Part shown: piece after piece, positions 6,625-61,390 of the stretch
How positions within the stretch are numbered: position 1 is the first letter of the stretch
How the letters are laid out: the number at the start of each line of letters is the position of its first letter
Assembly: GCA_050230475.1 (NCBI GenBank)
Contig: JBFLGF010000093.1
Location: 1 to 64,000, forward strand
Source: Ancylonema sp.
Taxonomy: Eukaryota
Length of the DNA stretch: 64,000 nucleotides
Direction: 5' to 3'
Position numbers and translations under genes: made by a program
Notes under the pieces: model-generated
Seen by the model: only the letters and a program-made list of their open reading frames with translations
What the model was told of the DNA's origin: nothing
The model's database searches: none

Positions 6625-6902
6625 CGATCTGCCTTCGCATTATATGATGGCACCACGTCAATCCCCCAGAGTCGTAGCTATTGTAGACAAGGAAGATTAG
6701 AAGAAGGAGAGAAAGAAAAATTGTGCAAGTTGTTGTCGATATTAGCACCCCCATGAATTCGGAAAACCAAAGCTCACGTACTGACGGTGAAGAACAACAG
6801 ACTTGAACTCGGTATCCTTCACCCACTAGAGATCCCGACACTCCTATTTACCAAGATGCTGAGGCAGTACCCGGGGAGTATCCTACTCCTCACCTTGAAA
6901 TA

Positions 6903-7633
6903 TTGTTGGAAATTGTTGCACGAGAAGGAGAAGACTATGGTCGACGACAGGGCTACTGTACAAAAATGCCTGATTCATTCGAACCACATTTTTATTTGCA
7001 ACTTGAACCCGGTTCTACCAGTTTGCATCACATGAACGACTCAATTGTGCCACCACCCTTACCTCTGGAAAAGGCTCAAATTCACCATAATCCTCTTCAT
7101 GACATTTTGATGCAGCAACGAGCCATGGTCCAAGGAACAGAGTCAACACTTCAAGAGGTAGCCGATCTGGTCAACATCATGCAAGATCTTGCGAACGCAC
7201 GTACCACCAATCCTGCCTTTCTCAAGGAACTAGCACGCTTACCCGCTCACTACAACCGATTAGCGAAGCATTACGGCATCATCATGCTTCTCAAAAAACG
7301 TGGTGTACTCCTCGTGGGAGACGTGAAACCAGTGGAGAATGTTTTGGATACTAGCGCCAAAGAAACCATGATTGGTGCCAACCTCACCAAACTCCTTCAA
7401 CTCACTCCAGCAGACCTGCACCCCGGAGCACCCTACATCACGGCGTCAGGAAAAATAGAGCTCAGTTTGGGAAGCACTAAGGAGAAAATCCCAATCACCA
7501 TCGGAGAGGGCACGGCTCACCCTTGCACTGTGCATCTCCACCTTCATCTTTCACCATCCACGGAGTTCGACATCATTTTGGGGAACTCGTTCCTATGCCC
7601 TATGGGGGGATACCCGGAACCCTGGACCGAACT
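6903..7633 (+). CDS. Element X1 piece 1: N-terminal region plus retropepsin-like aspartic protease, interrupted by G1
   Basis: VLDTSAKETMIG ... FDIILGNSFL; homologous to the protease at about 62900-63438. Confidence 0.8.
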
Positions 7634-8198
7634 TGTAATATATCGCCACAGGGCAATATATATGACGTTATTCGTGAATAACAAACACATACGACTCGAA
7701 CGTAATCGACACGCTGTATCCGCAGTCTGCACCAACTAGAGCTTGTTCAATAATGAATTAGTGAGTACAGCAGGCTGCGGCGTGTATGTTTGAAGGCGGA
7801 GCTCACGATCGAATCGTGCAAAAGCTCGTCTTCAGCTGAGGGTGAATTGCACCCCAGCTGATAGCGGTTCGCCCTACGAGCTCTACTAGAAGAGCCCTAC
7901 GAGCTCTGTCGATGCGGGATGGAATTCCGCAAGCGATGTTTGACTTGCGTCATGTGCGGCTGAATCCGTACGAACGGACGGGGACTTTGACCTGTCAAAG
8001 GATTCGTCGAAATAATAATACCGGCTCCATGCGGGGGCGGTAATATCTAATATTAAACAAGTATTAATTGGCGCAACATTGCGCCAAGTATCAATAATTC
8101 TTAGGCGGGGCGCACGCCCGAGGCCGGCGTCCCTCTCTATGAGCAACTCTGCTTATAGGCGCAAGCGATAATAACTTAATTATCGTCACTCTGTTACA
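7634..8198 (-). repeat. G1 3' LTR; PPT at 8199-8210
   Basis: TGTAA..TTACA termini; adjacent CTCGCCCCCCCT is a purine tract on the minus strand. Confidence 0.92.
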
Positions 8199-8324
8199 CT
8201 CGCCCCCCCTTAAGTGGCAATGTCCGCATTGACCACAAAAGAGTAACTAGGACTTGAACCGTTTCCGCAATCCAGCCCGGATTTGTTCGTCGGAAAACGT
8301 TGTTCCAACTGTGCGCTTAACACT

Positions 8325-9337
8325 CTATGCACTGTTGTTCTTAGCTCTTGACATGCCTTTTTCTCTAGCCAGGAATTTAGTTACCATCAGTGGCGCTGAT
8401 TTTTCGATAACTATCGCTGGTTCCCAAATGTTATGTTCAGGTCCATAATCCAACCACTTGACCAGAAATTCACGTCGTGTGCCACGGCCGACTTTTAGAA
8501 ATTGGAAATCGATAAGTTTTTCGATTTCATATTCCATGTTAGCTTCCACGGGAACCGCCGGTGGAATCGGCGATTTACCCGCTACAAAACGCCGAAATTA
8601 ACTCACATGAAAAACATTGTGAATTTTCCGATGCACGGGCAACTCCAATTGGTAGGCAACTTCACCGATTCTGGCCAACACCTTAAACGGACCACTGACT
8701 TTAGGCCAGAGTTGACTGGGCCCGGGTGTTGATAGAGTGATCCTCCTAGTAGATAGAAGAACACTACTCCCAACAGAAAATCGTTCCACCAATCTTCTGC
8801 GGTTGTCAGCATTCATTTTTTGCCTTGCTTGAGCCTCTTGATAACTCTTCCGAGCCTTCTTTAAGAGTCTGTCAATTTGGGCACGAAAACGTTCAGCAGC
8901 AGGGTTCCAATCTCCTGGCTGTCCCGTTTGCAGACGAGCACTTGTTCGAAGGGTTAACGGTGTCTTTGGGTGCTGACCGCCATTCATCTCGAATAGAGTA
9001 CACTGGATGGTTTCTTGCCAAGCGTTGTTTATCGAAAACTTTGCCAATGGCAACCAATCCTCCCAATCGGACATGTCGACATCGATGAAGCAACGAAGAT
9101 ATTGCTCCAAAGTTCGATTGGTCCTTTCGGTTTGCCCCTCGATTTGAGGATGAAAAGAAATACTCATCTTCAAATCGACACCCAATCCAGCAAATAACGT
9201 TTGCGTGAACGCGGCCCGAAATTTAGGATCTCGATCACAAATAATTTCGTCGGGAAGGCCATGGAGTCTTACAACTCCATCGATGAAATAACGGGCAAAA
9301 TCCTTTGCCGTCATCGATTCCTCAACCGCGATGAATT
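8325..9337 (-). pseudogene. pol: G1 integrase core/C-terminus (GPF motif) plus chromodomain
   Basis: [61 protein letters not shown]. Confidence 0.93.
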
Positions 9338-12300
9338 TTTTAACAGTGCTGTCCCGAGAGATTCAGATCTCCGACTCACAGTTTCCGTAAGCTACAATAT
9401 CTTTCAACGAATCTCAAAGGGACAAGAACGTGATAAACGATAATACAAAAGCATCGATGGAAATGAGTAATAAATTGTGAGCGGCATCGGGTTGATAATA
9501 CCCGATGCACGTTACATTGGCAATAATGCCGACGGTCGGAATACCGACCGTTGGCCTATCACAACTCAGCACGTAAGCGATCATGTCAACGGCTTATGCC
9601 AGACAGTCGCGCATGACTAGGCATAGCAAATCCTACCAAGCCACGTAGCTAGGTGCAGTCTGACATGACGCACCTAGCCTACTTCACTAGCAACGGCAAT
9701 CATTATGACGACACGGTACGTGCCTAGCAAAGCGAGTCGGGTGCCCGGAGACAAACGTATCCGACCCCTCTACTACAATCACACCCGGCTATAAGCGCCC
9801 GGGTGGAGTCCGAACTAGCACACTAACCATGGCTATCCGACTTATTCTAACACACCCCCTCGGATGCCATGCCTTGATTGGCAATTCGCTAGGCACCCTA
9901 GGGACTACCCTAGTTACAGCTAAATCATGGCATGACCATTGCATAGCCCATAAGGTAGTTTGGTCTACCCTAGCATATAGACGTGCTAGGGGTGCCCTAT
10001 CTACAAAGTAGCCGATCGGAGCTCCCGAAGTCGATCGCTCCCGCTCCTTGGTCGTTTTTTCGGGCCGAAGCCCTGATCATACTGACAACTACCACAAGTT
10101 AGTGAAACAAAAAAAACAAAAAAATACGTTTTTTACTTTTTGACTTTTTCTGACTATTTAACCCATGCAGTCTGAAAACTTTAAACTTGCACAACTCTTT
10201 CAAAACATGTCCGTACAATTTGAAATTTTGTCATCATGTTTAACATAGCAAAGGCAACGTACACATCGAAAATGAAGTCATTCTAACAACTTTTTGAAAT
10301 CTGCAAAATCTGCAGAATCTGAAACCCTTTTTAACTTGACGTAAAGGTGTTTCAGGGGTTGCTGATAGATTGACTTAGCTGGATATTGGAGGAGTGCTGA
10401 TCCCTCCAGATGTGTCCTGGCCCCAAGCCAAAAACAAAACACACACCCCCTGCCAAGCATGGCAAGGCATCCGAAACATCCAAAAACAGTTCTACGCACC
10501 CCCTAATCAGTACACCCTTCACTATCTGGCAGCAGATTGACTGGCCAGAATATCCCCGTCCAGAACTATTGACACAACTGACTCAATATTTGGCCAAACT
10601 GACTCAAATTACTTGCTACACGGAGCCATCTCTACCAGCTACACTACTGGGTTTACAAGTTAGCAAACAAACAAACAAATCGCAGCAAGCAACAGTTTTT
10701 CAGGGATGCTGGCAGCAGGCTCTCCAGATTGTTGCTGAATACCCTGCTGGATCTAAAACAACCAGCTTTTCGTTTCGCTCATCTAAATGACCTCAAACTA
10801 AATACACTCTTAGTCAACCCTTTCAGGCACGTTGCTGATGTTACAGCTCAACAAACTGTCAAGTACCCAGCACAAGGTAAAATATTTTCTAGAGTACTGA
10901 CGTCAGACTCTGCAGACCTCTAAAAACTGCAGCTTTTATACTCTGGCTATCCTTTACACACAAAACTTGGGCAGGAATGCCTTTTATTATGACTTAAACC
11001 TTTTCCACACTTTCTATCAACATAGCACACCCTCACGACCACTACACCAGACCACGCACAAATCAGCAATTAAGTCAGGCGGGGCGTAGGGTTGGGAAGT
11101 TGGTGGGTGTGGACTGTTTGCTATGACTCCTGTCCTCATCTTGGACCTATGCCCCTTCACTAAAGCCTGCCCTTTGGAACCCCCATACTACTTGCTATCA
11201 TTCAGCATCCTGTCTAGGATCTCATAGCCAGTCTGACTCCCTAATTCACCAAAGCTGGACTTCAGGTTCTTGGAGTTTAGGGTGAGAGGGCCGACGGGGG
11301 GAGGGTCTTGGAGTTATTTTTCAGGGTGGGTAGGAGGTGTTATTTCAGATAGCCCCTCTCCGGGCATATTCCAGTTCATTACAACGGAAAATTTTGTTTT
11401 TACTCCCTCGGACCCAGGCACCATGACACTAGCACACAAAAGGGCCAGACCTCTGTGATGAATGCAATCTGCCCATTTCTCTCCTGTCAGAGTGGTCAAT
11501 TTCGGTCCCTCAGGAAGAACAACGAACCCCAAATTACCTCGCAAGACGAGGCAGTCCACAGACACCAGGTTCTGCGAGAAACTCGGCACGTGCAGAGCTT
11601 TCAAGGGCTTTCAAGGGCTGGACAAATGGCTGGCCAACGTTGCAATAGCGACATGTGATACACGCACCCCCACTTCCCTGAATTTCAGCTCCCTCCTCAC
11701 GCCCAACAGGAGCAGCTGCCTGGCACTCCCAAGCTCGATGGCCTGGCTCCTGGCACCGGTAGCACTCGACTGCTTTGTTGCGATCGCCGCCCCTCTCGCG
11801 CGACGGCTGCTCCTCCGGGCAGTCTCGCTGGATGTGGCCGAATTTGCGGCAGCCGTAACACTCCGGTCCAGCTTGTCTGCCACCGCCTCGACCCCCATAT
11901 GGCCTTCCGTTGCCACTTGCACCCCCTCGGCCAGCATAGTTCGCATGCTGGCCTCCTGGCAGCATCCCCCTTTTACGATCGCCCAGCTCCTCCCTCGTCG
12001 CGTCGTTCGATAACACGTACTGACGATGTGCGGAATGGTAAAATGGCTGAATTGGACTGCGCCCAGGTCATGCACGTCCGCACCATCGGGCTGTATAGTG
12101 TAGATGGCGAGTTGAGGAGGTTTATGGATTGATCGAAGGGAGTCACTGGAGCACCGAGGCCGTCCAGCTTGTCGTGAAGGTCTTTAAGCCGCTTCACGTA
12201 GATGGCCAGCTTCTCGTTCTCCGCCATGACGATGGCTGCCAGCTGGGCTTTCGCATTGGCTTTCTCGATGGCGCCCTGGACGAAGTAATAGGACTCCAGG

Positions 12301-13566
12301 GCGTCCCACATGGCTGCAGCAGTGTCGCAATGTGTGACGTGCGACAGCTCGCAGCATCCCAGATGCTTGACGATGTATGCCATGGCCGCAAGATTCTTCT
12401 CCTCCCAAACAAGGAGTGCAGCAGTTTGAGCTGCGATCGCAGCTTGCCGAGCTCTGCGGGCCAGAGCTGGATCGTCGCCTGCAGCGGTGATTTCATCCTC
12501 CTCAGCCTGCGTCAGCATACTGGGGATAACAGGACAAGATTGCCTGGCAACACCGCCCCATTGTAGCACAATATTATGCAATTTCTTATCGGCCAAGCCG
12601 AACTTTAAACGCCCATTGTCTATAATCTACTCCTGTAAATTGAGGGATCATGGATTTATCCGACATTGCGAGCAGTAGTTATCAAAACACGGCAAGTAGT
12701 CACTCGCAGCCTTAGGCCGTTACTGAGCGTGTCTGAGCTCGCTCCTGAGCTCAATTGAGCCGTGCGCCATGTGCCTAGCGCCGGAAAACTTGGGAATTCC
12801 GAGCTCAGACGCTGTAGCTTAGTATGTAGCTTAGTGTCGGCGTAAATGATTTCTGAGCTCGTTCGAGCTCAGAAATCATTTCCGCCCCTGAGCTCGAGCG
12901 TCGAGCTCAGGAGTGCTGACGTGGTCCTGAGCTCGAACCCGCCAATCGTGCAAAGCCAATTTTCTGATACGCCAATCATAGATTTTCACTTGAACGGGGT
13001 AAAGGGCAACCATGCTGACATGGCAAAAGTTCAGGAACACATACGATAATTTCGCCGGCCACCGCGAGCTCAGGAGGTCGAGCTCAGGATAAATTTGCTA
13101 GCGAACCGTACCCGCGATTATCGCCAGCGAAATTGAGCTCAGGAGCGGAGCTCAGGAACACGAAGTAACACCCTTACAGCTCGCAGTGTTCAGTGCGATC
13201 ACTCACAATTCCAGACCCTGCACCAATTACGTGCAGCGATTCTTAACCCGTAAATTTTGCCCCTGAAAGAGCACAATTTATCGTCCCGCAGTTTCGATTG
13301 CAGTGGACGCGTAGAAGCCTGTAGTTATTAACACAGCGTCTCTAACTAGACCGCATGTGGGCCCATAACCTTTTAACAGTGCTATCCCGAGAGATTCAGA
13401 TCTCCGACTCACAGTTTCCGTACGCAACAATATCTTTCAACGAATCTCAAAGAGACAAGAACGTGATAAACGATAATACAAAAGCATCGATGGAAATGAG
13501 TAATGAATTGTGAGCGGCATCGGGTTGATAATACCCGATGCACGTTACATTGGCAATAATGCCGAG
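9338..13566 (-). mobile_element. Copia family D non-autonomous (gag-only) element nested in G1 integrase
   Basis: 3' LTR 9338-9852; PPT 9853-9862; truncated 5' LTR 13371-13566; PBS 13358-13370; no IN, RT or RH between the LTRs. Confidence 0.85.
11314..12666 (-). pseudogene. gag: Family D gag plus protease C-terminal remnant
   Basis: ADKKLHNIV, MWDALESYY, CYGCRKFGHIQRDC, CYRCQEPGHRAWEC; joined by a deletion to LHVPSFSQNLVSV. Confidence 0.85.
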
Positions 13567-15990
13567 ACTCGATTTTTTTTGTCGTGCGGTAGTCGGAAGA
13601 CTTGTGATGAAGTCCATCGATAACGATGACCAACGGCGCTCCGGGATCGGCAAAGGTTGCAATAACCCTTGTGGCCTACTATTTAATGTCTTGCTCCGCT
13701 GACAAACAAGACAGCCCCGGACAAAGTTGGAAACATCCACCTACAATGTCGGCCACCAATAAGTTCGTTTGATAAACTCAATCGACTTCTTGGCGCCAAA
13801 ATGATCCGCAACCGCACTTGCGTGCCCAAGTTGCATGATTGTGTCTCGAGCCGCCGCGGGCACGAATACACGGTCATCTTTATACCATAATCCTTCGGTA
13901 TAGTTTAGGTGGTATACCCCTTTCTGGCAAGATGGGGAGCCCTCACACTCAGTGCCGACGACATATCCTTCCGCGATCGTCTTAGCATCTATGGCTGAAT
14001 CTGGGAAACCAACGTGGATAGCCATCATAGTCCGTCGACTTTGCATCGTGGTGGTGTCCGTAAAGGTTGCAATCCCTTCCACGTTCCCTCGCCGTGGTTC
14101 AGGTGCCGTTGTGACACTAGGAGGCAAGAGAACCTTCCTATCGATACGACTTAGAGAGTCGGCAAGATTTGTGCGTCCCGGCCGATACTCCCAACGAAAA
14201 TCGTACGACTGTAACAGCTCGGACCATCGTGCTTGCCGCCTTGACAACTCAGTCTTGGTACTTAGGAAGACATTCGGATTATGATCTGTTACGACCACAA
14301 AGGAATGGGCACCTTCCAAACAGCACCGCCACTTCCGCAAACAGTGTACCGTGGTGAGCAACTCTTGCTCACCGACACCGTAACGTTGTTCTGCGCTATT
14401 CATGGTTCGTGATTCGTACGCAATGGCACGTGAACCTTGGAGTAACACTCCACCTACCGAATGCATTGATGCATCCGTTACAACTTCACAAGGAAGATTC
14501 GGATCAAACAACGCCAACGTTGGCGCGTGGGTCAAACACCACTTAAGTCGATCAAATGACTTTTGGCAATTGTCGGTCCACTCAAAGTGTGTCGACGCCT
14601 TAGTCAAATTCGTCATTGGTTTAGCGATCTCCGCAAATCCATAAATGAATTTTCGGAAGTAATTCGCTGGTCCAAGGAACGACCGCACGTCCTTGACGTC
14701 TGCCGGAATAGGCCAATCCGGGATGACACTTAGTTTTTGAGCATCGGGTCGAATACCTTCGGGCCCAACCTCATGTAAAGAAGTTTTTCTTGCATAAACG
14801 TGCACTTCTTCTTTTAGGCATAGAACTTATATTTTCGAAAAATCGACAACGCTTGTCGAACATGCTCAATATGTTCTTCTTCGGTTTTAGAATATATTAG
14901 AATACCATCCAGATATACTAACACAAACTTTCCGAGATACGGACGAAAAATAACATTCATCGTCGATCGTCGCTTGAAAGCTCGCGGGGCATTTGTCAAG
15001 CCGAAAGGCAACACTTTGAACTCATAATGACCCATCGGCGTTATATACGCGGTCTTAGGACAATCTTCCGGCGTAATCCGAATTTGGTGATATCCCTGAG
15101 CCAAGTCCAATTGATCCAACAGATCATCGATACCTGGCAAGGCATATCGGTTTTTGACGGTTTGTTTGTTAAGTGCTCGAAAATCGATACACATTCTCAA
15201 ACTCCCCCCTTTTTTTGATACAAACAAAATCGGCTGATCGTACGGCGAAGAACTCGGGGTAATCCACCCTTTCGCTAAGTACTCAGTGATTTGCTTCTTT
15301 GCCTCTTCCTGTTCAAGAGGACTTAACCGATACATCGGTCGAAAAGCAGGTTTCGCACCCGGTTCCAATGGAATCGTGTGTTCGGTACCCCGATCGGGTG
15401 GAAGTCCGTTCAGAAGATCGTCCGGAAAGACATCGAAAAGCTCGTCGCGTAATTCCACCATTTGAGTTGGGATGCCGGGCATCTTTTCCTCATTTTACAA
15501 AGGCCATTCCTTAGTATCCGCTAACTCTTCTTCAAGAGTTTTCGAGCGTAACTGTACGAAGAATGCCTGAGCCCCTTTTCGCAATGCCTTGGAAAGTTGC
15601 ATCGACGACAATAAAGGAGAGACTGGCTTTTCTTTTTGTTGCTGACTTGCAAACAATGTGATAAAGTGCAATCCTTTGTTTATTCGACATGTTTTGGTTC
15701 CAAAATCTAAAATAGCATTATGTCGATTCATCCATTCCAATCCAAGAATGGAGTCAATATACGGTGCTAACTTTAGCTAACTTTAGCACATTGAAAACGA
15801 CTTTGCCATGATAGGCTCCCAATTTCATGATTTCCCCAATATACCACTTTCACTACCATCGCCCAAAGTGACACTCACTTTGTTACTAGTATCGATGGCA
15901 ATATTGTGTAGGCGAAAAAATCCGCACTAATGAAGTTTTCGCTAGCAAGGGTATCCAACGATATCGATATCGAGACGCCTGCAACTTGCG
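13567..15990 (-). pseudogene. pol: G1 pol: protease, RT, RNase H, integrase N-terminus
   Basis: LDTLASENFIS, ILGLEWM, RMCIDFRALN, LPFGLTNAP, YLDG (YxDD mutated), VTDAS, TDH, HHCC, SMDFITSLP. Confidence 0.93.
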
Positions 15991-15998
15991 TCAAATGA

Positions 15999-16469
15999 CT
16001 ATGCGTTGTCATGTGCTGAAAGTGCAGCCGTTGTGGCATTTGTACTACTCACCATAATGCAATGTGCTTCACGGCAGTTAACGAGGGAAATCCCTAACCT
16101 ATGCACTTGATTGACTTTTTCATGCTTGTGGGTTTGCTTGTAGTTTATAAATGACACCGGCCATGTGTGCAGCTCAGAATTGAGTTTCACGACAACGCAT
16201 TTAAATTTCTTCACAACTGTGTGAAAATATTTTATGCAGTCATCGAGTACTTTACCACTTGGTAAGCACAAATACACATCGCATGACAAATCGATAGAGG
16301 AAAAGAATTCCATTGGAGTCATGACATTACACTTGTATTCCATTGCAATAAATTTCTTATGATTTTCCAGATACACAATTATTGGGAGACTCTCCTCACA
16401 AATTGCGGACAAATCATTTTTATTGACAACTACAAATTCTGTCAATTCCAGCTCGGTCCGCGACTCCAA
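15999..16469 (-). CDS. Extra domain between G1 gag and protease, possibly a degenerate N6-adenine DNA methyltransferase fold
   Basis: 156-aa ORF; FFSSIDLSCDVYLCLPS..CVVVKL..W spacing recalls the VW(L)NPPF..(V)VP..W pattern. Pattern match only. Confidence 0.35.
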   Translation of the reverse strand: MESRTELELTEFVVVNKNDLSAICEESLPIIVYLENHKKFIAMEYKCNVMTPMEFFSSIDLSCDVYLCLPSGKVLDDCIKYFHTVVKKFKCVVVKLNSELHTWPVSFINYKQTHKHEKVNQVHRLGISLVNCREAHCIMVSSTNATTAALSAHDNA

Positions 16470-16480
16470 GTCGGAACGAG

Positions 16481-18083
16481 CTACCCTTTTACCACTCGGC
16501 TAAAGGTTTTCTTTTCATCCCTGTCGTCACCCTTGTCTTTTACTACCACACGTGTGGGACAATCACGGGCCACGTGTCCAGATTTCTGACACGTGAAACA
16601 TTTCCCGTCAGTATAGAGCGCCATCCTATCGTGGTTGCTAAGCTTGGCCCTACCCGGGTCTTGTCTGGGGCCCTGGCCCTTGGCCTGGCCCTCGCTCTGG
16701 CCCTGGCCCTCGGCCTTGCCCTGGGTTTGGCCCTAGCCCTGGAAGCGGTAAGAACTCCCCCCCTTCCCTGCGCTGCCGAACGTCGTCCCCTTCTTCGCTG
16801 GGATTGAGGATCCACCTCCACGATGCTCCAAGGCTTTGGCCTTGCGTTTCTTCAGGAGTTGGGTGAACGGCAGCTCGCGCTCCTCCGCAGTCTCCGGGAT
16901 GATGATCCGCACCTTCTGCTGGTCGTCGTCCTCCTTCACAGCGAACGCCATGAGATCCTGGAGGCTGGTCTACGCACCACCCTTCCGTGGTCCCTTGCGT
17001 TTCACCGCTGTGAACAGCTCGGGATTCATGATGTCGAGCAGGTGCTGAATTTGCGCATTGCGCGATGGACGAATCCCTGGATCCAGGCGCGACAGGTGCT
17101 ACTTCATCTCCACCTAGAGAGGTCGCAGCGGGCCATTCTGTTTCAACGCCCAATAAGTGAGCTTCAACTGCTCCGACAGGTCCGTATTTACCGTACGTGA
17201 CCATCATCTGTCGCTCGAACACCTCGTAGGTATACGGGTTGCCGCCCGTCCGCAGCAAGGATGACTCGCAATCCCGCCAGTACGAATCGGGCCCCTCCTT
17301 CAGGTGTGTCATGATGAGGCGCATGCCCGTCTCCTCTGTGAATCCTATGTCGACGATCATACCGATGGAATCCCTGAACCAGTCCCAAAATTGAACTTTG
17401 CCGTTCGCATCCCACATGGGAGGCGCACCAAAATTCGTCAGCGCCTTGAAATATAGGTCCCTGTCCGCCTTCGAGCTTCCCGATCGAGCCAATTTCATCC
17501 TCCCCTGGGTAATTAGTCGCTCGCTGGGGATTTATGCAGTCTCGACCGTAGTGGGGCGGATCTCAGGCTGCCCGAATTCGCGCCCCTGTACAGCGAGCCC
17601 GGCGACCTTCTCGCGCAGGTCTTGTAGCGCCTTCTCCGCCTGGCGCAGCAGCTCCTCTTCGTTGGAGAGCTTCCCACGATTTTTGTGGTAGGTTCGCAGT
17701 CCCCCGAGTGCGTCGATTGGCGCGCTGGCGCCCGGAGCAGAGGCAGCAGCAGGATTCGCGCGCTGAACGACTGCAGCGTGGGCGGGCTGGCGAGCGGGGC
17801 GGAAGTTTCCTGCAGTGTTTTTTTTTTGGGCGGGAACTAATACTGGTGACGGACGCTTGAGGTTGCTTCCCGTTGGAGAGTCACCGGTTGCAGGCTTCGG
17901 AGATTGCCTCGGCGATGTCACAGCACCCTGCAAAATCGATGAATGCATTGCGAATCCAGCCACAGTCTCAACTACTGGAGGGGCGGATGTCGTCTGTCCG
18001 CGGGGCGCATTAACAGGAGGCACATTCAGAGACATTGACTGGTATGTTCGAATGAAAGCTACGAGTGCGGCTTCGAAACTCAT
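16481..18083 (-). pseudogene. gag: G1 gag, frameshifted, ending in a CCHC knuckle
   Basis: THLKEGPDSYW..TYEVFERQM capsid-like segment; CFTCQKSGHVARDC; stop at 16481-16483. The start is approximate. Confidence 0.8.
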
Positions 18084-18127
18084 GCACAGTGCTATTGTTC
18101 TGAAAAAATTACTAGGATCTAAATCCT

Positions 18128-18139
18128 GCTCTGATACCA
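18128..18139 (-). promoter_or_regulatory. G1 PBS (3' end of tRNA-iMet)
   Basis: Reverse complement TGGTATCAGAGC lies next to the 5' LTR. Confidence 0.92.
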
Positions 18140-18140
18140 A

Positions 18141-18570
18141 TGATAATATATCGCCACAGGGCGATATATATGACGTTATTCGTGAATAACAAACACATAC
18201 GACTCGAACGTAATCGACACGCTGTGTCCGCAGTCTGCACCAGCTAGAGCTTGTTCAATAATGAATTAGTGAGTACTCCGCAGGCTGCGGCGTGTATGTT
18301 TAAAGGCGAAGCTCACGAGCGAATCGTGCACAAGCTCGTCTTCAGCCAAGGGTGAATTGCACCGTAGCTGACAGGGGTTCGCCCAGTCCACTGGAAGAGC
18401 CCTACGAGCTCTGTCGATGCGGGATGGAATTCCGCAAGCGACGTTTGACTTGCGTCATGTACGGCTGAATCCGTACGAACGGACGGGGACTTTGACCCGT
18501 CAAAGGACCCGTCGAAATAATAAACAGTTACCGGCTCCATGCGGGGGCGTTAATATCTTATATTAAACAT
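18141..18570 (-). repeat. G1 5' LTR, part 1
   Basis: Homologous to 2473-2909; broken at TATTAAACA by copia A1. Confidence 0.92.
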
Positions 18571-23851: not shown

Positions 23852-24301
23852 CCAATCCGCCAATATCATCGGCGAAGAAAACTACAAAAGTCATGTTTTC
23901 CAGATTTTTCCAAAATCTGTCAATTTCTTCAACTTTGTGAGATTTCGTCGACACGCTATCTGCCGACTCCATCTGGCACGTCACGTTTATGTTGTTGGAC
24001 GTTTATCTACTTGGTACGCCATGGTCGCAACCTTCTTGACGACGCGTACCTTCGAGAAGTGAATAGTGCCCCGAGATTCTTCGATGGGAGGTCGTATGAG
24101 GTGCCAGATGGAGTCGTCAGACGGCCTGTCGACGACATCTCTCAAAATCAAAGAAATCGACAGATTTTGGAAAAAATATGCTAAACATGACTTTTTGTAT
24201 TTTTATTAGTCGATGAAAATGACGGATGATACTTGATGACTTGGCTACTTGTCTCGAGGAGCAGCATCAAGATTGGGCATCGGGTCATCATCTAGATCTC
24301 A
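23852..24301 (-). repeat. Element X-type LTR copy with a long internal inverted repeat, truncated at an inversion breakpoint
   Basis: Starts TGAGATC on the minus strand like 25706; arms about 23855-23979 and 24101-24227 are reverse complements. Confidence 0.65.
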
Positions 24302-25499: not shown

Positions 25500-25718
25500 G
25501 TTGACGCGCCAGATGGAGTCGGCAGACAACCTGCCGACGAAATCTTTCAAAATTAAAGAAATCGAGAAATTTTGGAAAAAATCTACAAAATATGACTTTT
25601 TGTATTTTTCTTCGTCGATGAAAATGACGGATAATACTTGATGACTTGGCTGCTTGTCTGGATGAGTAGCATCAGGATTGGTCTTCGGGTCATCACCTGG
25701 ATCTCACTCCCCCCCCCC
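25500..25718 (-). repeat. Element X1 PPT (25707-25718) and start of the 3' LTR (25706-25500)
   Basis: The minus strand reads G-run-AG followed by TGAGATCC; direct repeat of 24101-24301. Confidence 0.75.
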
Positions 25719-25963
25719 AGCTACGAAAGCTCTGCGTCGGAGGCTGGGACACACGGACAGATGATGTGCAACAAGGTTAGGATATATTATAGAATGCTGG
25801 GTTTCTTTGGAGTCTCTGTCTTGACGTAGGTTTTATGATAAGTAGTTAACACTCGTCTAGGTTGGTTAGGGAGTCCGAATTGCATTGGTTTGCAATAATA
25901 TGCATGATGAGTTTGGCCTGAGTCATAATGGAGTTCGACGTCATGCAAGGGTTTGGGGAATTT

Positions 25964-26260
25964 TTATGAAAGGAAGTTCGGGTTGTTGACAGGTGGTGAG
26001 GCATCGGTGACCAAAGCTAGGTTGATCTCGTCTGGGGATGCTCGCCAAGGTGTGCAACGTGAAGTTTCCTCATAAAGTGGTGGTGAGTGGAAAATCAAAT
26101 CGGGAATCTGTGACAAAAATTCGATGAGTTCTTTTTCGACTTGAAGTAGTTTGGTTGCATTTGCGGTGAGGGACTCTGATTGAGTGATGATTGGCTGAGA
26201 GGAAGGGTAAATTTTTGTAGAAGAAGTTGTGGATCGTGTTGAACTAGACTCGCTAGTAGA
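25964..26260 (-). CDS. Element X1 piece 4: C-terminal Ser/Thr-rich and helical tail
   Basis: Joins in frame to 35810 (..KTPSAST|SESSSTRST..) through TSD TCTAC. Confidence 0.65.
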   Translation of the reverse strand, partial: STSESSSTRSTTSSTKIYPSSQPIITQSESLTANATKLLQVEKELIEFLSQIPDLIFHSPPLYEETSRCTPWRASPDEINLALVTDASPPVNNPNFLS

Positions 26261-32937: not shown

Positions 32938-35810
32938 AAGTTAACCCCCTAAATTCATGCTATTGGAAGACAACATCGATGACACAACAGTGGCACTACT
33001 TGCAGACATTGCTGCATCACCCGTTGCATCGATGCCACCACCTTCCACACCCGTTACCACCACACCATCGACAGACGGAGGTATACAACTGCCACCCATC
33101 GATGCTTCGCAAACCATGCCAGCACCAAGGTCCATGTACTTATTTGCTAACGTCAACGCAGGTTCGGTACCCCGGGACACGGGGCGTGCCAGATCTGAAG
33201 AGGGTTCACTGCGAGCACCCTTGTCAACCATAAACCCTGGAAAAGGACAACAGCAAAACCATCGACAGGAGCAGCTCAACCTTGATTTGCCGAACTTCAT
33301 GGATTTGGTCGACCACACCAACATCGATCGATATGTGGACACCATGCTTCAGTGGTTCAATCCAGACACCAGACTCACCCCAATCGAGCAACTCTACATT
33401 CTCATGACAAGTCCATTTCATGCACCTCACAACTTGACCCTGCCATCGATCGAGGCGATTCGAGCCAGGGCCAATTCGGATCGTTTGAAATAGGAACAAG
33501 AAGATAAGGACAAACTCACCATTGAACTTCGTGCATTACTCAAGAAAGAGTTGGAGGATGCAGCCATTGTTGAACGTGTACAACGGGTAGCCGATATTCT
33601 GCCTTTGGGAGAAGTCACCACAGCCAATGTCGACGACGCACTGTGGGCGATCAACCAAGTCAAAATTGATTCTTTCAACACACACCTGTAGCAGACTCAT
33701 GCCACCATCATCAGACGAGCTGCCGAATTAAAGGCGAAGGAGGAAGCAGAAGCAGCACGCGTGGCGGAAAAGAAGAAGGGAAAGGAGAAGGCCGACGACA
33801 TTGTGAAACCGGAACTTTTTGACTGTGACTCCGACGACAACCTTAAGAATGTTCCACCGGCGGAATATCAGCATCGTACCACACTCACCATTGGGGAGAG
33901 GACACCAATTTGGAGCCCGCGAGCGAAGTTGCAGCGTCCCATTCATAGACAAAGGACAATTCCCCTAGTCTCTATTCCGGCGGCACCGCAACCCACCCCG
34001 GTGTACCGGACCGTCCCCCTTCTTCCCTCAACATCGACGGCTCAACCCAAGGCGCAACCTTTAGTGCCCCCTCTCATCCCCATCCTTTCCCCACAGCACA
34101 ATGCAGCCCAATTCGCCCAAGACCATGCCGCAGTCAACGCCATGGCGACGGCTGCACAACGAACGACACCTGGCACTTCGTGACTACGACAACGTTCGTG
34201 ATCCTCGCGATGGGGAGGACATCGACAGGCGTCGTGCACGCTATCGCCAGAAGTTTGCATTTTGGAACCCCAGGGATCAGCACCTCAGTATCCCTGGCTA
34301 CCCCGACCTCATCACCCAACGGGTCTTGCCTGCCACATTTCCACCCCAACAGCTAGCCGAGGAAACCCGGAGGATCTACACACCCCGGAGTGTGAACGCC
34401 GTCGCCACCATACGCGAAGGGCAACTCACCATGGGTCAACGATTGCTGTGACAGGGCAACCACAAAATCATGCAGGATTACACCCTTTCCCCACCTCGAC
34501 TTCATTGGAACGGACGAAAATTTTAAATTACCAAATCCATGTCTGCCAGCATTGCACCCCTTCACCCATCCATCCTCGGCAAAGGCGTGCACATCTATGA
34601 ACCATTCGGAGGACCAGACATCAGCATTTCTACCTTTATTCGGAATGTGGCGACTTTGTGGGCACCTACACTACTCAGGTGGAGAGCAAAGCGGACGAGT
34701 AGGCGTTGTACTTCGCCCTGCAAAAAGCACAACGACAATTCCTTGGACAACTTCCCGACAGCGCGATCGCAGGATGCCGCAGTCGATTGGGAAGCAACAT
34801 CATCGAAGAAACCGCAAAACCTGCATTCAGGCGCCTCATCAACGAGCATGGTCAAATCGACATTGTGGGGGAGTATTGGAACAGGGAGACGGAGATTGCC
34901 TATAGTCCACTCAGGGGGGGCTTCGATCACCGCGTGTACCCTGTCCTGGCATTGATCAAAGTCCTGCAGAACCACTCGGACATCAAGGATCACCCTCCCC
35001 GTTGCATTCCATTCACCCACGGGTTTTTGGATTCACCACCGTGGGTAACTGAGATGTATCCCTTGGTAACCACCTTTTTGGGGCATCCAGCAGTCATCGA
35101 GGCCACCGCGGTAAACTCCAACAACCGTCGCTTAACCCTTGTGTGGCAAAACCACATGCCACCCAGACTCCCCGAGGCTTGCTTGCCTGCCGACACCCAA
35201 TGTTGCAAACTCAACGACCTGTTGGAACCCGGCCATCTACCAGCAACAGTAGTCAACAGTGACGTGCAACCGCCAATCGTGAACAGTGCTGGACAACCCC
35301 GACGTGCATTTCCACCCATCACACCCTACCAAGATGGCGTCGACTACAACGTGGATCCTGCCATAGGTCACTACGGCGAGGGCATGGTGTATGAACAACA
35401 ATCTGGCACCTATATCACACCCTCATCTTATGATCTGGAACGCGCCATGGGCTTCACCCCGGGAGCTACAGCCGGACCCGTGGGCATGATCCGCACCGCC
35501 GCTCAACGTCGCAGCACCCTTGGCCTCGCATTAGATCGCCACATCACCCATTGGCTGGCATCCATCATCATGGCCACCTACAACCCGTACGGCCAACGCC
35601 TCACCTCAACTATCAGGTATTCCCCACCATCCTCGTTGAGGCAAAGGGCCACCTACCCCAAAGTTCCTATGCATCCTGTCACCACCCCAGTGCATCGAAA
35701 CCAAAGAAAGAACATAAAAAGAAGAAATCATCGATTTCCTTCATTCCTCCACCATTGGCAACCCCACCACCTGTTAATGATGAAATCTGGAAAACACCAA
35801 GTGCATCTAC
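32938..35810 (+). mobile_element. Element X1 piece 3 (inverted segment): Pro/Thr-rich and charged helical regions plus DNMT-like domain
   Basis: Mostly open + frame with few stops or shifts; its ends carry TSDs swapped between A2 and A3. Confidence 0.75.
34539..35583 (+). pseudogene. C5-cytosine DNA methyltransferase-like domain, catalytic motifs degenerate
   Basis: Motif I-like GVHIYEPFGG; IV position DIVGEYWNRE; VI position PPRCIPFTHG; VIII-like NRRLTLVWQN; IX/X ERAMGFTPGATA..QRRSTLGLALD..WL; one frameshift near 34645 and a TAG at 34700. Confidence 0.75.
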
Positions 35811-38800
35811 TGTTAGAATATTTTGGATAGCCATATGTTATGCGTGCTAGTCCAGTTGTGACCGGTTACTCTAACCGGGAGCAATATTCTAGATGTGCCT
35901 GTAGTCGGGGCCGGGCAAGTTTGTGCCCGGGCACCTGACATGTTTCCGACGCTTAGAGACGTTATTTGGTTGAAGCGTAGTGACTGGCTTGTTTAGTCGT
36001 GTCAGAAATGTCCGGCATGTGCCGTTGACATGTAGAAGAGCTGTCAGTCAATGATAGGCCGACGGTCAATTGTGCCGACCGTCGGCACACAACAATCTGT
36101 AAAGCGCATCGGGTATTACCATCCCCGATGCAATCACAATAATAATTAATTCGATCCACACACGCAACTCCTGTCTCGTTGATCCTCAGTGAAAGAGATC
36201 CTTTTGCGTACGGTTCGTTTTGTCGCCCACCTAATTATTCCGGCAAGTCCACTCAAAAGCTTATAGGTTATGGGCCCACGTGCGGTCTAGTTAAGACGCC
36301 GTGTTGGTTAAAAACTAAAGGCTCCACGCGATTTCGCTGCGGTAATCTCTGTGAACGGTATATTCTGCCAAGCGCAAATATACTCGTAGTTGTAAGGTCT
36401 GCACGTAATTCTGATATTGCGCTGCAAGTTTTTGAGCTGAGTGCTGCAGTGCAGGAATTGCACTGAGAGAGAACTCGAGCTGAGCGAGAAATTTTGTAAA
36501 AGTCCTACACAATAGCTGCCATAATGTCGGATAGGTCGAAAATCCCTCAAATTACTGGAGCTGATTATACAGGATGGGCCTTCAAGGTCAAGGGCTGGCG
36601 GACAAGAAACTGCACCGTTTGGTAATGGATTGGGACAGTTTGGCCGTTTGCCGCGAAAGTGTCGCCCTGATAACGAGCTGCAATTTGCCGCCAGGTTAGC
36701 TGCAATTCGCCGCCAGGGGGATCGACGTGGATGTCGAAGTGTTGGTCAGACAGCAGCAGATTTCCCAGCAGCTGCTGGAGCTGGAGAAATGGGACGAGGA
36801 TAATCTGATCTGGCTGCTCTGTCGTATATTGTGAAGCACCTGGGGCCTTCGGAGCTGACGCACGTCACGGACTGCACGACAGCTGCCGGAATGTGGGATG
36901 CCCTGCGGACAGTAGGTGCAGGGTGCGATCGAGATCGCAAATACGGAAGCACTGCTGAGCGCGATCATTCAGACGGAGGCAGAGGACCTCAACGTGTACG
37001 TGAAGCGTCTGCAGCAGCTGCATCAGGACCTTAAGAATCTGGGGGCGCCAGTATCTCCGACAAAGCAGGCGATCAACCTGCTGAATTCGTTAAACAACAC
37101 GCATTACACTCCAATGGTCTCAACGCTGATGCCATGGTCCGAGTCGTCGCCACACCTCTTCACGATTCCACACATCGTGAGTGCGCTTCGCGACGACGAG
37201 CGGAAAGAGCTGAACGATCGAAAAAGGGGGGCGCTGCCCGGAGGACACCAAGCGCATTATGGTGGACCTGGGGGGGGAAACGGAGCTGGAGGCAGCAGCA
37301 GATCTGGTGGTGCGACTGGAGCTGGTCGCAGAGACGCTGCAGGCGTCGAATGCTTCGGCTGCCACAAATTCAAATTCGGGCACATCAGAGCGAATTCACC
37401 AGCATCTGGCGGAGGCCATGCGGGGCCATGGAAATGTCACAGGTGCCACCAGGCAGGCCACCGAGCTGCTCAGTGCCCTTGCGCCATCACCAGCAGCTGG
37501 AAATGTTGCGCACGCTACTCAGGGAAGTCAGGGGGGAGGCAGAAGTGCAGATGCAACATTGTAGGGCACACAATTGAACATTGTAGAAAAAGAACATCTG
37601 ACATGGCTCTAATGAACACCCAGAAGCTGCTAGGAGGGCTGATGCACAAGCTAGACTTGCTCGCTTTGCTGACAAACCCTTCAACGCTAATGTGGATTTA
37701 GCTTTCGGTGCTTCTTTCTCGTTCGCGTTCGATGTTGCCCGGGCAATGTCTGCTGGTCCTCACTCAGACTCCCTGATCTCAGGTGCTACATACCACATTT
37801 TCACGGCACGTGAACATTTTGTGGAGTACACACCTACCCTGAGCACTGCTGACGGCTCGTCACACAAGGTGGAGGGCACTGGTTTCGTGCACATCCGAGT
37901 GAGGAATGGCGACGCTTTCTTTGTGCAGCCACTTTGCTCGATCAACGTCCCAACCTTTGCCTGCACCCTCGTGTCGACATCGTGCCTCGTCAGAAGAGGT
38001 GGGCTGAGCTTTCAACAGCTGCCCACGGGTCCTGAATTAAACAAGGGAAATGTGAAATGGGCTGATGTGTGCAGCAGCCTAGTGGTCTGACTTGCTCGCT
38101 GCCACAATCGTCATGCCTGGATCTCATGATACTACAGCAAATTTGTCCACAGGCATGGTCTGGCATCACAAACTGGGTCACCCCAGTTCTGATGTATGTC
38201 AGATTTCGCCAGACGTGGTGACATCCCAGAGTTAAGTCAGGGAGAATTAACTGAAGTAAAGGGATGTCAGGTTTGTTGTCAGGGGAAGATGGATTCAACT
38301 CAGTCATGCTAAGGTCAGTCCGGATCTGGGGACATGCCCCAAGATGGGTCGCATCCCACCCTGGATCTCATTGGACCACTGTCTGTCAGGTCAGGTAACG
38401 GAGGATTTACATATGCTCAGACAGGGATAGAGGTATCCACACGTCTGTCATTTGTCAGCTTGTTAAAAACAAAGGATGAAGCACTGAACCGAGCAAAAGT
38501 CACTATACAATTGCTCGAGGTCCAGTCAGGTCTGCCCCTACAGTCTATACGGACAGACAAGGGAGGGGAGTATGTGTCTCAGGACTGGATAAACTACTGT
38601 GGGGGGAAGGGTATTGACAAGCAAACCACAGAAGCATATAGTCCTGAACAAAACGGAATCTGTGAAAGACTGAATAGAACATTGACAGAAAAAATGCGAT
38701 GCATCTTAATCTGGTCAGGTCTACCGAAGTCTTATTGGGATGTGGCATTGTTGTTATTACATGCAAATTGGTTGAGGAACAGAACACCCACTAAGTCACT

Positions 38801-41800
38801 TTCTGGGAAAATTCCAATTGAGGTCTGGGAGGGGAATCTGGGAGGGGAAGAACCTGACACTTAATAAAAGTCATAATTTCGGGTGTCTGGTCCAATATCT
38901 GAAGGTTGGGGGGGAAAAGAACAGTCAAGGGGACAAGTTTAGTTTGCCCCTCGTCTGGGGATGGCTGCGGGGAGTGCAGGCTACAATGTTTTCGACCCCC
39001 ATAGAGTGGGGGTGATATCACGCATGGACGTGCGGTTCTTCGAGGAGGTGCCGGGGTACCCGAAGCTCATGGGGGGGAGAGCTCCCCAGGTTTAGGAGGC
39101 AGCAGAAAAACACTTTTTCTACCTTTTCCCCGACCCTCAAGATGAACCAGCTGCAGCAGTTGTGCCAGCAGCAGCAGTCCACCCCAACATGCCAGCAGCA
39201 GCAGTCCACCCCACCCACGCAGCAGTTTTGCAACCGATGCCAGCAGTTCTGCAGCCAATCCCAGCACCAGCAGAACCAGCAGTCCCTGAGACAGCAGCTG
39301 CCATCGACTATCCGCACGACAACTTCAAGCCACAAGCTACTGAGGTCCCTAACGCCACGATTGTGTTGTCTGACAGCCAGTCAGGGATCAACAACGCAGG
39401 AGGTGGAGATGCAGTGCAAGGAGGGGGTGCGAACCCAGGAGTGGGGGAGCCTGGCAGCGTAGCTGATCGGGTGATGGCTAGAAGGCGAGCCAACTTTGCC
39501 GAGTATGGGGATCTCATGGATGTGATGGGGAGGAGTTTCGATGACGCAGCTCACGCCAACTACTCAGCGACTGAGTGGGAGCCCAGCAGTTTCTACACTG
39601 CTTCAACGGTCCTGTGGATCCGGGCTACGGTGCGTAGCACTAACAGCAACTCCTCCGAGCCACTCACCTAACCATGCGTGAGAGGCCAGACTGGGACCAG
39701 GGGACAGGTCATTGTGGAAGAGCTCGGCAGCCCTGGAGACTTCACTCCTTTGAGGTGTGTGTGCTTCCTCCAGGTAAAAAGGCTGTGGGGTGCACATATG
39801 TGTTTAAGGTCAAAACAACACCACAGGGGGATATTGAAAGATATAAAGTCAGACTGGTCGCACAGGGATTCTTACAGCAAGAGGGTATTGACTATAATGA
39901 AGTATTTGCACCAGTAATCGACAGTACATCTATCACCCTACTCTCTCTATAGCAAACCAATATGACTGGGAACTGGAACAGATGGACGTAATCACAGCGT
40001 TCCTGCATGGACGTCTGGAAGAAGAAGAAGTTTACATGAAAATACCACCACGTATGTATATCAATGGGGGTGAGGGAAAGATCTTACGACTGAAGGGAGC
40101 TTTATACGGTCTAAAGCAGAGTATGGCAGGAAATGTTCAGAAAATAAAATTTATGATATCTGAAGGGTTTAAACAGTGCGTAATGAACACATGTATAGAT
40201 ATGAGGGGGGAAGCAGACAGCAGAATCATACTGGGCATACATGTAGATGATCAGGTGATCACAGGTCCTAACGCAATGGTCGTCAAAACTTTTAAAGAAG
40301 ATATGGGTAAAAAGTTCATTCAAAGTTAAGGATCTGGGTTCCCTAACCCATATCCTGGGGGTGGAAGTGAAGAGGGATAGACAGAGAAGACGCTCACACT
40401 GGGACAGTCAGGATTCTTAAGGGGAGTGTTTGAACGCTATGGGATGCATGAGTGTAATCCAACCAAACTCCCACTCGCCCCTGGAACTCAATTCACACAG
40501 AATGATGAACCAACTCTTCCCCCTACCCCTGAAGAAATAACCGACTTTCGAGGGAAAGTGGGATCTCTCATATATGCCATGAAACAAAACCAGACTGGAC
40601 ATCGGGTATGCACTTGGGGTACTGGCAAAACACATGGGAAATCCTGGGGTCGCACACATAAGGGCGTTACATCAACTATTTAGATACCTTAAAGGGACTG
40701 TGAACCACGGACTTGACGTTTGTGAAAGACAGCTTTGAAGTAAAGGGTTACTGCGATGCATCATGGAACAGTTGCAGATGACAGGGAAGTCAGTCACAGG
40801 ATGGGTAACCACGGTTGGGGGGACAGCACTGAGTTGGAAGTCGCAGAAACAGTCCACTGTTGCACAGAGCACTGCTGAGGCTGAATATATCGCTGCCTGT
40901 AGTGTATCTAAAGAGTGCTGTTATCTAAAGTCTCTCTTGAAAGAACTCAAAGTCCCACACCAAATCACAATCCACACTGATTCAACCTCAGCTCTCTCCA
41001 TGATCCAGAATCCTGTGCAAAGACAGAAAGCAAAACATTTTAATGTGGTATATCACTGGGTACGAGAATGCCACAGCACGGGGAGACTACTACTGTGCTA
41101 TATGTGATCTTGCAGGCGCCAATCAACCAGCAGATATGCTCTTCCCCAAGTTTTACTGGACAGACACAGCAAAAGTCTAGGTTTTGGACGGGTATACTGA
41201 AATGGGGGTGTCAGTCTTTTCTTTTATTTTTATGATCGAAGGTTTCGAATGCCATGCATGTTGGCAGGGGGTGTGTTGTTATGTTTCTTGTCATGCAGAA
41301 GTAATGGGGAGGGTACACCAACTTCAGCTCATCCAGCTAAGTCACACTTTCACCTTAATACCTTGAAAAGAACACTTGAGAAAACGCTTGAGGACACTTT
41401 AAAATCAGAAAGTGGTGAATCTGCTCAACTTTAAACTTGTCAGTTTGTTCTGAATTTCCGAATGTATGTTCTAATCATTGTTGCAAAACTTGTGTCAAAA
41501 GTTGGTGCTGATAGGACTGGTAATTTTGAAGTTATGCTGTTTTGAGATTTTTCTGACCTGGAAAGTGTGAAGTTTTCAAGAATCGTGAAGTTGAAAAAGT
41601 TAAGAAATCAAAAATATTTTTTCATAAGTTTTTTTGTTTTTCGCCTAACTTGTGGCATGTGTTTGTATGTGCAGGGCTTCGGCCCGAAAATCGACTAAGG
41701 ATCTGGAGCGATCGACTTCTGGAGTTCCGATCGGCTTCCGATCGTCTTCCGATCGTCTCTTCCGAACGGCTGCATTTATTGATAGAAAAACCCCTAGCAC

Positions 41801-42386
41801 GCTTGTGTGTATGCTAGGGAAGACCAAAACTGTTTTATATGTTATGCAATGGTTCTGCCATGTTTTGGCAATGACTTGGGTACTCCTTTTGATGTCTGCA
41901 TCTATGCCAACTTTAGCATGGCATCCGAAGGGGGTGTGTTAGAATATTTTGGATAGCCATATGTTATGCGTGCTAGTCCAGTTGTGACCGGTTAATCTAA
42001 CCGGGAGCAATATTCTAGATGTGCCTGTATGCGGGGCCGGGCAGTTTGTGCCCGGGCACCTGCCATGTTTCCGACGCTTAGAGACGTTATTTGTTGAAGC
42101 GTCGTGACTGGCTTGTTTAGTCGTGTCAGAATGTCCGGCATGTGCCGTTGACATGTAGAAGAGTGTCAGTCAATGATAGGCCGACGGTCATTGTGCCGAC
42201 CGTCGTCGGGCAACAATCTGTAAAGCGCATCGGGTATTACCATCCCCGATGCAATCACAATAAATATAATAATTCGTTCCACCACACGCAACTCCTGTCT
42301 CGTTGATCACCAGTGAGAGATCCTTTGCGTACGTTCGTTTTGTCGCCCACCTATATTCCGGCAGTCTAATCACTCAAAAGCTTATA
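35811..42386 (+). mobile_element. Copia A3, full length, degenerate gag-pol (36524 to about 41180)
   Basis: 5' LTR 35811-36265; PBS 36266-36278; PPT about 41927-41936; 3' LTR 41937-42386. Confidence 0.95.
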
Positions 42387-43162
42387 AACTAACCCTTGGG
42401 GAACGAGGGTGCTACCGCCGCATGCAATAGGGATGTTGGGAACACGGGTGAGTGAGGGAACGGCCTGCACGAAAATTTCGTGGTGAATATCCGTGTTTGA
42501 CAAAAGTGGTACACGTTGCCTTGCAATGTATACCTGTCGATGTTCGTGGTTGCGGTGGGGTGTCCCGAAAGAAGGGGTCAAATTCTCGACTGAGGGTAGA
42601 TCGAGGTGGTCTTGTATACGGGGAAATGGGTGAAGTCACATTCGATAGACGGGGTGCAGGAGACGACACCGGGGTGGTGAAGTTAGGCCTCGCGCCACGA
42701 GGTGGTGAGTGTGGAGTAGTGGTGACTTGAGTGACCAAGGGTGGTGGAATGGTCAACTCCCGAGGCTCGGTTGGTGTGGGATCGACTAGGGGAATGGGTC
42801 GATGGTGGGAACCACGGTAACATCGTCGTCGTCGAAGACACAATCGTCGTCTGCATCCGTCGATGTTGGGTCCTGACTGCGAAGACCGCGGCGGTTGGTG
42901 TCAGGGATCGGCATCTCGGTATATATTGTATCTGTGCTGTCCAAGTCCCATCTTGGACATTGTGCCTTTTATGACCCGGTTGTGAAGTCGTTGAAAGTAC
43001 AGTCCGGCGACGGTCGTAACAGTTCGATCCAGGAGGATGCGCAATGTGCTTCTTTCGCGCCATGTAGATGGCTGGGGTGCCCTAAGTCTCGTGGATGGAA
43101 AGAGGGCCTCCGGCTAAACAATGTCCGCCTGTCCTGAAAGCGGGTCGATACGTGTACATTTC
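42387..43162 (-). mobile_element. Element X1 piece 2 (protease C-terminus plus Pro/Thr-rich linker)
   Basis: Continues the 7633 ORF as ..PWTE|MYTYRPAF.., matching SWGHRFHYRV in the X2 protease. Confidence 0.7.
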
Positions 43163-43339
43163 TGTAACGGAGTGACGTGCGCGTTTGTGCATTACTCTTG
43201 TCTTTGTCGATAGTTAAGTTTATTATCGATTGCGCCTAAAAGTAGAGTTGCTTATAGAGAGGGACGCCGGCCTCGGGCCTGCGCCCCGCCTAAGTATTAT
43301 CAATACTTGGCGCAATGTTGCGCCAATTAATACTTGTTT
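43163..43339 (+). repeat. G1 5' LTR, part 2 (inverted)
   Basis: Reverse complement of the LTR portion missing after 18570; starts TGTAACGGAG. Confidence 0.9.
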
Positions 43340-61388: not shown

Positions 61389-61390
61389 GC

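Follow-up and report, generated by a model that had tools for sequence, protein, structure and literature searches.

The question raised by this locus is to which element a protease and a DNA methyltransferase (DNMT)-like domain belong when they lie in scattered pieces among other transposons, and how such an element could move when no polymerase or integrase is found with them. The window is the whole analysed stretch of Ancylonema sp. DNA (contig JBFLGF010000093.1 of assembly GCA_050230475.1, positions 1–64,000). It is a nest of eukaryotic long terminal repeat (LTR) retrotransposons, and the element in question, named X1 here, is inserted in the integrase of a host Gypsy element. X1 is probably a decayed member of a multi-copy family of Gypsy-derived retroelements whose end repeats are split; its single open reading frame (ORF) holds a protease and a catalytically dead DNMT3-like domain and lacks reverse transcriptase (RT), RNase H and integrase, and the element was likely moved by the enzymes of an autonomous relative. 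Its layout is A1 (981 bp), interior (5196 bp), G10-AG, B1 (205 bp), AC, A2 (963 bp), u (235 bp) and B2 (205 bp). The parts of X1 and the insertions separating them are the following (TSD, target-site duplication; PBS, primer-binding site; P1–P4, pieces of the interior).

5640..5643, + strand: left TSD TACG within the host Gypsy integrase; 5 bp (ATACG) if the terminal A of X1 is counted
5644..6624, + strand: repeat A1, the 5' end of X1, beginning TGTCATG; 871 of 956 aligned bases are the same as in 25499->24537
6625..7633, + strand: P1, start of the long decayed ORF (ATG at 6644) and retropepsin at ~7314-7631 with active-site motif DTSA
7634..18569, − strand: nested Gypsy element A (RT, RNase H, integrase, Met-type PBS), sitting at join 1; TSD GAACT/GAAAT
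43163-43339, + strand: first 177 bp of the 5' LTR of Gypsy element A, displaced from 7634..18569
18571..23851, − strand: 3' part of copia B3, at a breakpoint of the large inversion; TSD TGTTT
43340-44234, + strand: 5' part of copia B3
42387..43162, − strand: P2, protease C-terminus followed by a Pro/Ser/Thr-rich spacer
35811..42386, − strand: copia copy, one recombinant product of the P3 inversion; swapped flanks TAGTT / GTAGA
32938..35810, + strand: P3, spacer of low-complexity and coiled sequence, followed by the DNMT3-like domain; inverted with respect to P2 and P4
34573..35602, + strand: DNMT3-like domain without catalytic residues, within P3
26261..32937, + strand: copia copy, second recombinant product of the P3 inversion; swapped flanks GTAGA / AAGTT
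25719..26260, − strand: P4, ORF end (stop near 25965) and ~250 bp of 3' non-coding sequence; joined to P3 in two other contigs
25707..25718, − strand: polypurine tract (PPT), G10 then AG
25502..25706, − strand: repeat B1, 205 bp, TGAGATC...GCGTCA; 180 of 207 positions the same as in B2
25500..25501, − strand: 2-nt spacer AC at the internal B-A junction GCGTCA-AC-TGTCATG, the probable integration site; both X1 ends coincide with this junction
24537..25499, − strand: repeat A2
24302..24536, − strand: segment u, 235 bp, single in X1, ending ...TACTCTAAG before B2; a probable LTR-LTR junction lies at its end
24097..24301, − strand: repeat B2, the 3' end of X1, ending CACCTCA
24093..24096, − strand: right TSD TACG

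X1 is one element scattered by three nested insertions and two inversions. The order P1-P2-P3-P4 with its coordinates and strands was proposed in an earlier note on this DNA, and this reassembly is correct. All three joins are supported by a TSD as claimed there (GAACT/GAAAT, TAGTT/AAGTT and GTAGA/GTAGA, the last equal to TCTAC); with the positions fixed by the element ends, the chance of the flank match is 0.016, 0.016 and 0.001 for joins 1, 2 and 3, respectively. At join 1, Gypsy element A has inserted between the flanks GAACT and GAAAT. Here the frame of P1 continues in phase into EMYTYRP of P2, and the end pattern W-x-E-x-x-x-[YF/L]-R-P/Q of related proteases (WEETAWLRP in P0026, WAERVQYQP in P0010) matches across the join. 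Among the records listed, three contig records (two may be one sequence) extend 118–210 letters beyond 7627–7630 without the LTR of Gypsy element A. Joins 2 and 3 are two copia insertions of opposite orientation with exchanged flanks (TAGTT/AAGTT and GTAGA/GTAGA), and these swapped flanks demonstrate that P3 was inverted by recombination between both copia copies. The support for join 2 consists of the flank match and the inversion geometry, while the P3-P4 join is present without copia in two contigs (joint 26261-35804, 147 letters on the short side). Distances between the copia LTRs were considered as proof of the small inversion and set aside, since all fall within 3.4–5.2% and are not decisive alone; the swapped flanks decide. 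The larger inversion (~23852-44234) splits copia B3, the two LTRs of which have 17 common derived sites versus at most 2 for any other pair among the eight LTRs. X1 is a member of a family and not a one-off, as the P3-P4 join recurs in the two contigs and many diverged contigs align across P1 and P3.

The interior measures 5196 bp, in agreement with the ~5.2 kb given before, and looks like one decayed ORF of ~1600 codons running from ATG 6644 to the stop near 25965. Of the three frames of P3, frame 1 is interrupted by 7 stops over its 957 codons, the others by 20 and 26. From the end of the last open frame, at ~25966, it is ~250 bp to the G10 tract, also as described earlier. The claimed lack of RT, RNase H and integrase holds: 0 of the 75 stop-free frames of at least 40 aa matched those Pfam families, and no tyrosine recombinase was found by Pfam among the same frames. 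Domain profiles built from DNMT-bearing relatives (8–11 relatives per domain) found nothing in X1, the best independent E-value being 0.11 for PHD, while they recovered the RT, RNase H and integrase of the Gypsy elements in the window at E 7e-33, 1e-38 and 9e-22. The protease matches Pfam PF13975 at E 1.6e-5, below the curated cut-off, and in blastp against the proteases of seven DNMT-bearing polyproteins its best E-value is 1.8e-8. The spacer between protease and DNMT takes ~800 codons in X1 versus 49–324 residues in six of the seven relatives, where it is measurable, and no trace of RT or RNase H was found in it. That RT and integrase are absent from every member of the family we infer from short contigs and not from a whole second copy. 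CpG depletion specific to X1 was not seen (observed/expected ratio 0.71–1.07 in the interior).

The DNMT-like cargo is classified from its sequence as an unrearranged DNMT3-like domain. A phmmer search with the frame 34703-35809 gave 118 relatives at E ≤0.001 among 1.84 billion representatives, the best full-length match being P0005 (E 4e-22), and a profile of 73 sequences placed DNMT3A first in the PDB (E 4e-16). The structure model of the domain (predicted local distance difference test score, pLDDT, 83) has DNMT3A as its best fold match (E 9e-9, template-modelling score 0.57); the alignment drives this model, which is thus not independent evidence. Single-sequence searches with the DNMT frame returned nothing from Pfam, NCBIfam, the PDB, phages or metagenome and viral contigs, word-based protein searches gave no match, and single-sequence fold prediction reached a pLDDT of 36 only. 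An Atlas search, taken as a lead and not as support, placed 26 of 30 matches in PF00145-bearing clusters (top score 0.92), with the family on 14–19% of the members.

Motifs VIII–X of the domain are recognisable. Motif IV reads GEYWNRE and contains no catalytic Cys, and motif VI is without EN, so that the ENV motif is gone. A domain in this state cannot methylate through the C5 mechanism, and the earlier note does not mention the loss of the catalytic residues. Of the claim that X1 combines a protease with methyltransferase-like cargo, the presence of both domains stands, but C5 methyltransferase activity is ruled out for the cargo in its present form. The copy is moreover broken, since a motif I-like VHIYEPFGG lies at 34587 in another frame and a stop follows at 34700.

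The loss of the Cys is not private to X1. The motif IV Cys is present in 60 of the 68 relatives covering the motif; 52 of these Cys-bearing relatives also carry EN in motif VI. Three of the eight rows lacking the Cys (P0025, P0035 and P0038) look misaligned or frameshifted and were left out of the Cys-less group. The other five relatives, at 33–71% identity (WKRE, WNQE, YHTE, WNQE and WHTE at this position), have derived residues in common with X1, and the six sequences are 26–71% identical. X1, P0004, P0017, P0029 and P0078 form one side of a branch with a Shimodaira–Hasegawa-like approximate likelihood ratio (SH-aLRT) of 91. As the loss is common to the five relatives, it is old and predates the X1 copy; in this respect the domain resembles a conserved pseudo-enzyme, its catalytic loss being common to a clade of six sequences. 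The five relatives come from short contigs of 563–941 bp. Constraint tests on the Cys-less domain gave p 0.20 and 0.35, and in a uniform-rate comparison no excess of invariant columns was found in the group (5 versus 3.3 of 41). A first constraint test with p 0.008 was discarded, being biased by conditioning on X1. The collinear stop-free fragments at 28–40% identity give a hint of constraint, though gene calling favours such fragments.

In a Pfam scan of 54 relatives the long ones are mostly Gypsy polyproteins with an rve integrase, and two domain orders occur among them: protease-DNMT-RT-RNase H-integrase and RT-RNase H-DNMT-integrase-PHD. Among 20 matches looked up, one is the named protein GJP34393.1 of Closterium, and no match was identified as Klebsormidium nitens; together with one Atlas cluster, the Closterium protein is a loose pointer to streptophytes. 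The long ORFs P0026 (1775 aa) and P0106 (2159 aa) hold a protease and a Cys-bearing DNMT and end without RT; from their sequences they are possible active counterparts of the X1 design. P0097 combines a C5 DNMT with a PCIF1-type domain in one ORF.

P0026 and P0106 would also suit another explanation, in which X1 arose by internal deletion from, or represents the first ORF of, an autonomous family whose RT, RNase H and integrase lie in a part missing only from some copies, the dead DNMT being a passenger. The close copies, which show no constraint signal, agree with it as well. We consider this rather unlikely: other contigs link P3 directly to P4, two contigs cover P4 at 10% divergence, and the 800-codon spacer is free of RT and RNase H traces.

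The ends of X1 can be read from the host. The host integrase halts at ...GCATACG before 5644 and resumes with TACGACC after 24097, its frame being continuous (...SLPAY picks up as DLPSKNLG at 24096(-)). This continuity together with TACG/TACG shows that X1 begins with TGTCATG, ends with CACCTCA and is flanked by a 4-bp TSD; its ends are thus TG...CA. The earlier note had the 5' end (LTR, PBS and gag) deleted and took the 205-bp TGAGATC unit as the LTR. Neither claim survives: a 981-bp copy of the 3' repeat at 5644-6624 directly precedes P1, and the 205-bp unit is only one part (B) of a longer repeat. What the 5' copy lacks is only u (the final ~233 bp of the repeat) and any PBS. The A-u boundary is bridged by contigs 1 and 7, which exit the window at 24303/24304 with 31 and 20 unaligned letters. 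The u-B boundary is found in two contigs, one base shorter than in X1 and with a repeat period of 1404. These boundaries fit an LTR of ~1404 bp that would begin immediately downstream of the PPT and have u as its last part.

Element W (45052-62454, + strand) has the same kind of layout, A-interior-B-NN-A-u-B, with repeats unrelated in sequence to those of X1. Its A is 800 bp, B 232 bp and u 33 bp, the junction is CGACA-GC-TGTCATA, the TSD is ACCT/ACCT, and it sits in frame inside another protease-bearing ORF. In both X1 (5639) and W (45047) an A immediately precedes the left 4-bp TSD, and a 5-bp duplication sharing the terminal A of the element is also possible. A third B-type end (...CACGTCA) lies at 23855-23983 (+), ~110 bp away from X1 within the integrase into which X1 is also inserted, and is cut by the large inversion; as judged from this end, a second member of the X1 family stood at that site.

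The A1-B1-A2-B2 order is by definition that of split direct repeats (PMC4157794), and X1 might accordingly replicate in the manner of PAT and Ngaro, with u as a natural unique spacer, a complete 5' end, and a B1-A2 junction that templates the circle junction. The absence of u from the 5' copy in both X1 and W is expected here, the ATG follows A1 after 20 nt, and no loose end at 6625 occurs among the 12 listed of 244. Nevertheless the G10 tract exactly precedes B1, two contigs pass from u into sequence other than B, and the true TSD is absent from the junction sequence, which is indicative of a DDE integrase; the 75 frames gave no match to a tyrosine recombinase. Replication of this kind is quite unlikely for X1. 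The reading in the earlier note, under which the layout arose by accident from a protease-DNMT element carrying a 205-bp LTR, together with deletions and the solo LTRs of another family, can draw on the heavily nested and rearranged region and on solo-LTR flanks matching at 4 of 5 positions (TCAAC/CCAAC), but it is very improbable, as the host TSD would have to match an A start to a B end fortuitously (chance 0.004) and then again for W, and A-u-B is bridged in other contigs.

The nearest known system is KnitGypsy-Dnmt3 of Klebsormidium nitens. According to the available part of its description (de Mendoza et al. 2018, PMC5890265), it has the Gypsy domain set, with DNMT3 in the Pol ORF together with RT and RNase H, conserved key catalytic residues of the DNMT3 and DIRS-like repeats in the order A-coding-B-A-B; its DNMT gave no methylation in yeast, a result the authors call inconclusive. 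That part of the description mentions no TSD, junction or mechanism. X1 likewise is Gypsy-type with an unrearranged DNMT3-like domain and A-coding-B-A-B repeats, but no RT, RNase H or integrase accompanies its DNMT, and the catalytic Cys and ENV are gone. As X1 lacks two features that define KnitGypsy-Dnmt3, it is regarded as a non-autonomous variant and not as a member. Most likely, X1 is a non-autonomous offshoot of the KnitGypsy-Dnmt3 kind mobilised in trans. The split direct repeats are common to X1 and PAT, Toc, Kangaroo and Ngaro, which in the part of the source at hand carry RT and a tyrosine recombinase (PMC4157794); X1 has neither of these, and has a retropepsin, PPT, TG...CA ends and a 4-bp TSD instead. 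With canonical Ty3/Gypsy elements X1 has in common TG...CA ends, the short TSD TACG/TACG, the PPT G10-AG (25718->25707) and a Gypsy-related retropepsin, and it differs from them in that its ends are A and B, parts of one repeat, and not two whole identical LTRs. DNMT3L and other catalytically dead DNMT3 paralogues are host genes with demonstrated regulatory roles; the X1 domain resembles DNMT3L in having a DNMT3 fold without catalytic motifs, while it is borne by an element and known here from sequence alone. Large retrotransposon derivatives (LARD), terminal-repeat retrotransposons in miniature (TRIM) and gag-only elements also lack pol enzymes and move in trans; X1 differs by its ~1600-codon ORF with protease and accessory domain and by its split ends. 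A literature search covering few subscription papers yielded nothing relevant on a non-autonomous or catalytically dead form, or on permuted LTRs.

For X1 as a non-autonomous retroelement moved in trans, the split end repeats likely arose when a circular intermediate was inserted. With plus-strand synthesis primed at the PPT, a ~1.4-kb LTR (B-AC-A-u) would result that starts directly after this tract. Two LTR ends would then be joined head to tail, giving the u-B2 junction in a circle, and a DDE integrase supplied in trans would cut this circle within the other LTR, at its internal CA-AC-TG site, discarding the 2-nt spacer and creating the 4-bp duplication. The u segment and the PBS were probably lost later from the 5' repeat of this copy. 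The DNMT domain most likely retained a binding or decoy role for a time.

Several observations weigh against this explanation. Joins 1 and 2 were never seen as joints in the short contigs searched, no whole second copy of X1 was seen among them, and the contigs, which are from one sample, possibly the window's own source, are short. The divergence of 13.2% between B1 and B2 and of 8.9% between A1 and A2 means that the X1 copy is old and its details may be eroded. The 5' repeat is without u in X1 and in W, which is also compatible with u as a unique spacer, and in W no PPT precedes B1. Inspection by eye of the sequence after 6624 revealed no PBS, the host tRNAs not being among the data; there is no tRNA gene within the window. 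No autonomous partner turned up, and no genome-wide search was made for one. The branch support of the Cys-less group, 91, is below 95 and comes from a quick tree of 93 columns and 82 of 120 rows in which P0115 was not included. In the constraint test on the dead domain, 20 of 93 conserved columns were changed against 31 of 112 others (p 0.20).

A further-reaching proposal is put forward tentatively. It is that an old retroelement lineage has deliberately retained a dead DNMT3, which would serve in the manner of DNMT3L as a decoy or as a chromatin-binding module directed at host or partner methyltransferases; the elements of this lineage would have given up RT and integrase and would insert from a two-LTR circle cut at a dedicated LTR site. 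DNMT3 borne by retroelements is already known; a lineage retaining the fold after the loss of RT, integrase and the catalytic residues would allow a binding or decoy role to be told apart from methylation. For the A-B-A-B layout of Gypsy elements, so far unexplained, X1 and W also offer detail at the level of single bases: the two ends of each coincide with an internal CA-NN-TG junction and the TSD is 4 bp long, which predicts a specific circular intermediate and a specific integrase cut. The same limited literature search found no paper on a dead DNMT3 in elements without RT and integrase or on such end mapping.

The neighbours of X1 are the following. The 15-kb interior of W contains nested copia elements and degenerate tandem repeats (59885-60651), and no protease or DNMT match was found in it. 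W splits in frame (PTPPCE / VRTPSLV) element Y (63884->62455 and 45051->44235, − strand), whose protease shares 38% identity with the X1 protease (E 4e-21); the part of Y seen yielded no DNMT, RT, RNase H or integrase. The segment 45851->45052 was considered as the 5' end of Y and rejected, since it is an end of W, which interrupts Y. The copia family TATAAG...AACA, with TA...CA and not TG...CA ends, is represented at 26261-32937, 35811-42386, 47868-54543, 18571-23851 and 43340-44234; its observed/expected ratios are ~0.6 for CpG and ~1.4 for CHG, unlike those of its neighbours. At 2475-3086, inside another element, lies a solo LTR that belongs to the Gypsy A family and shares 81% identity with 7634-8188.

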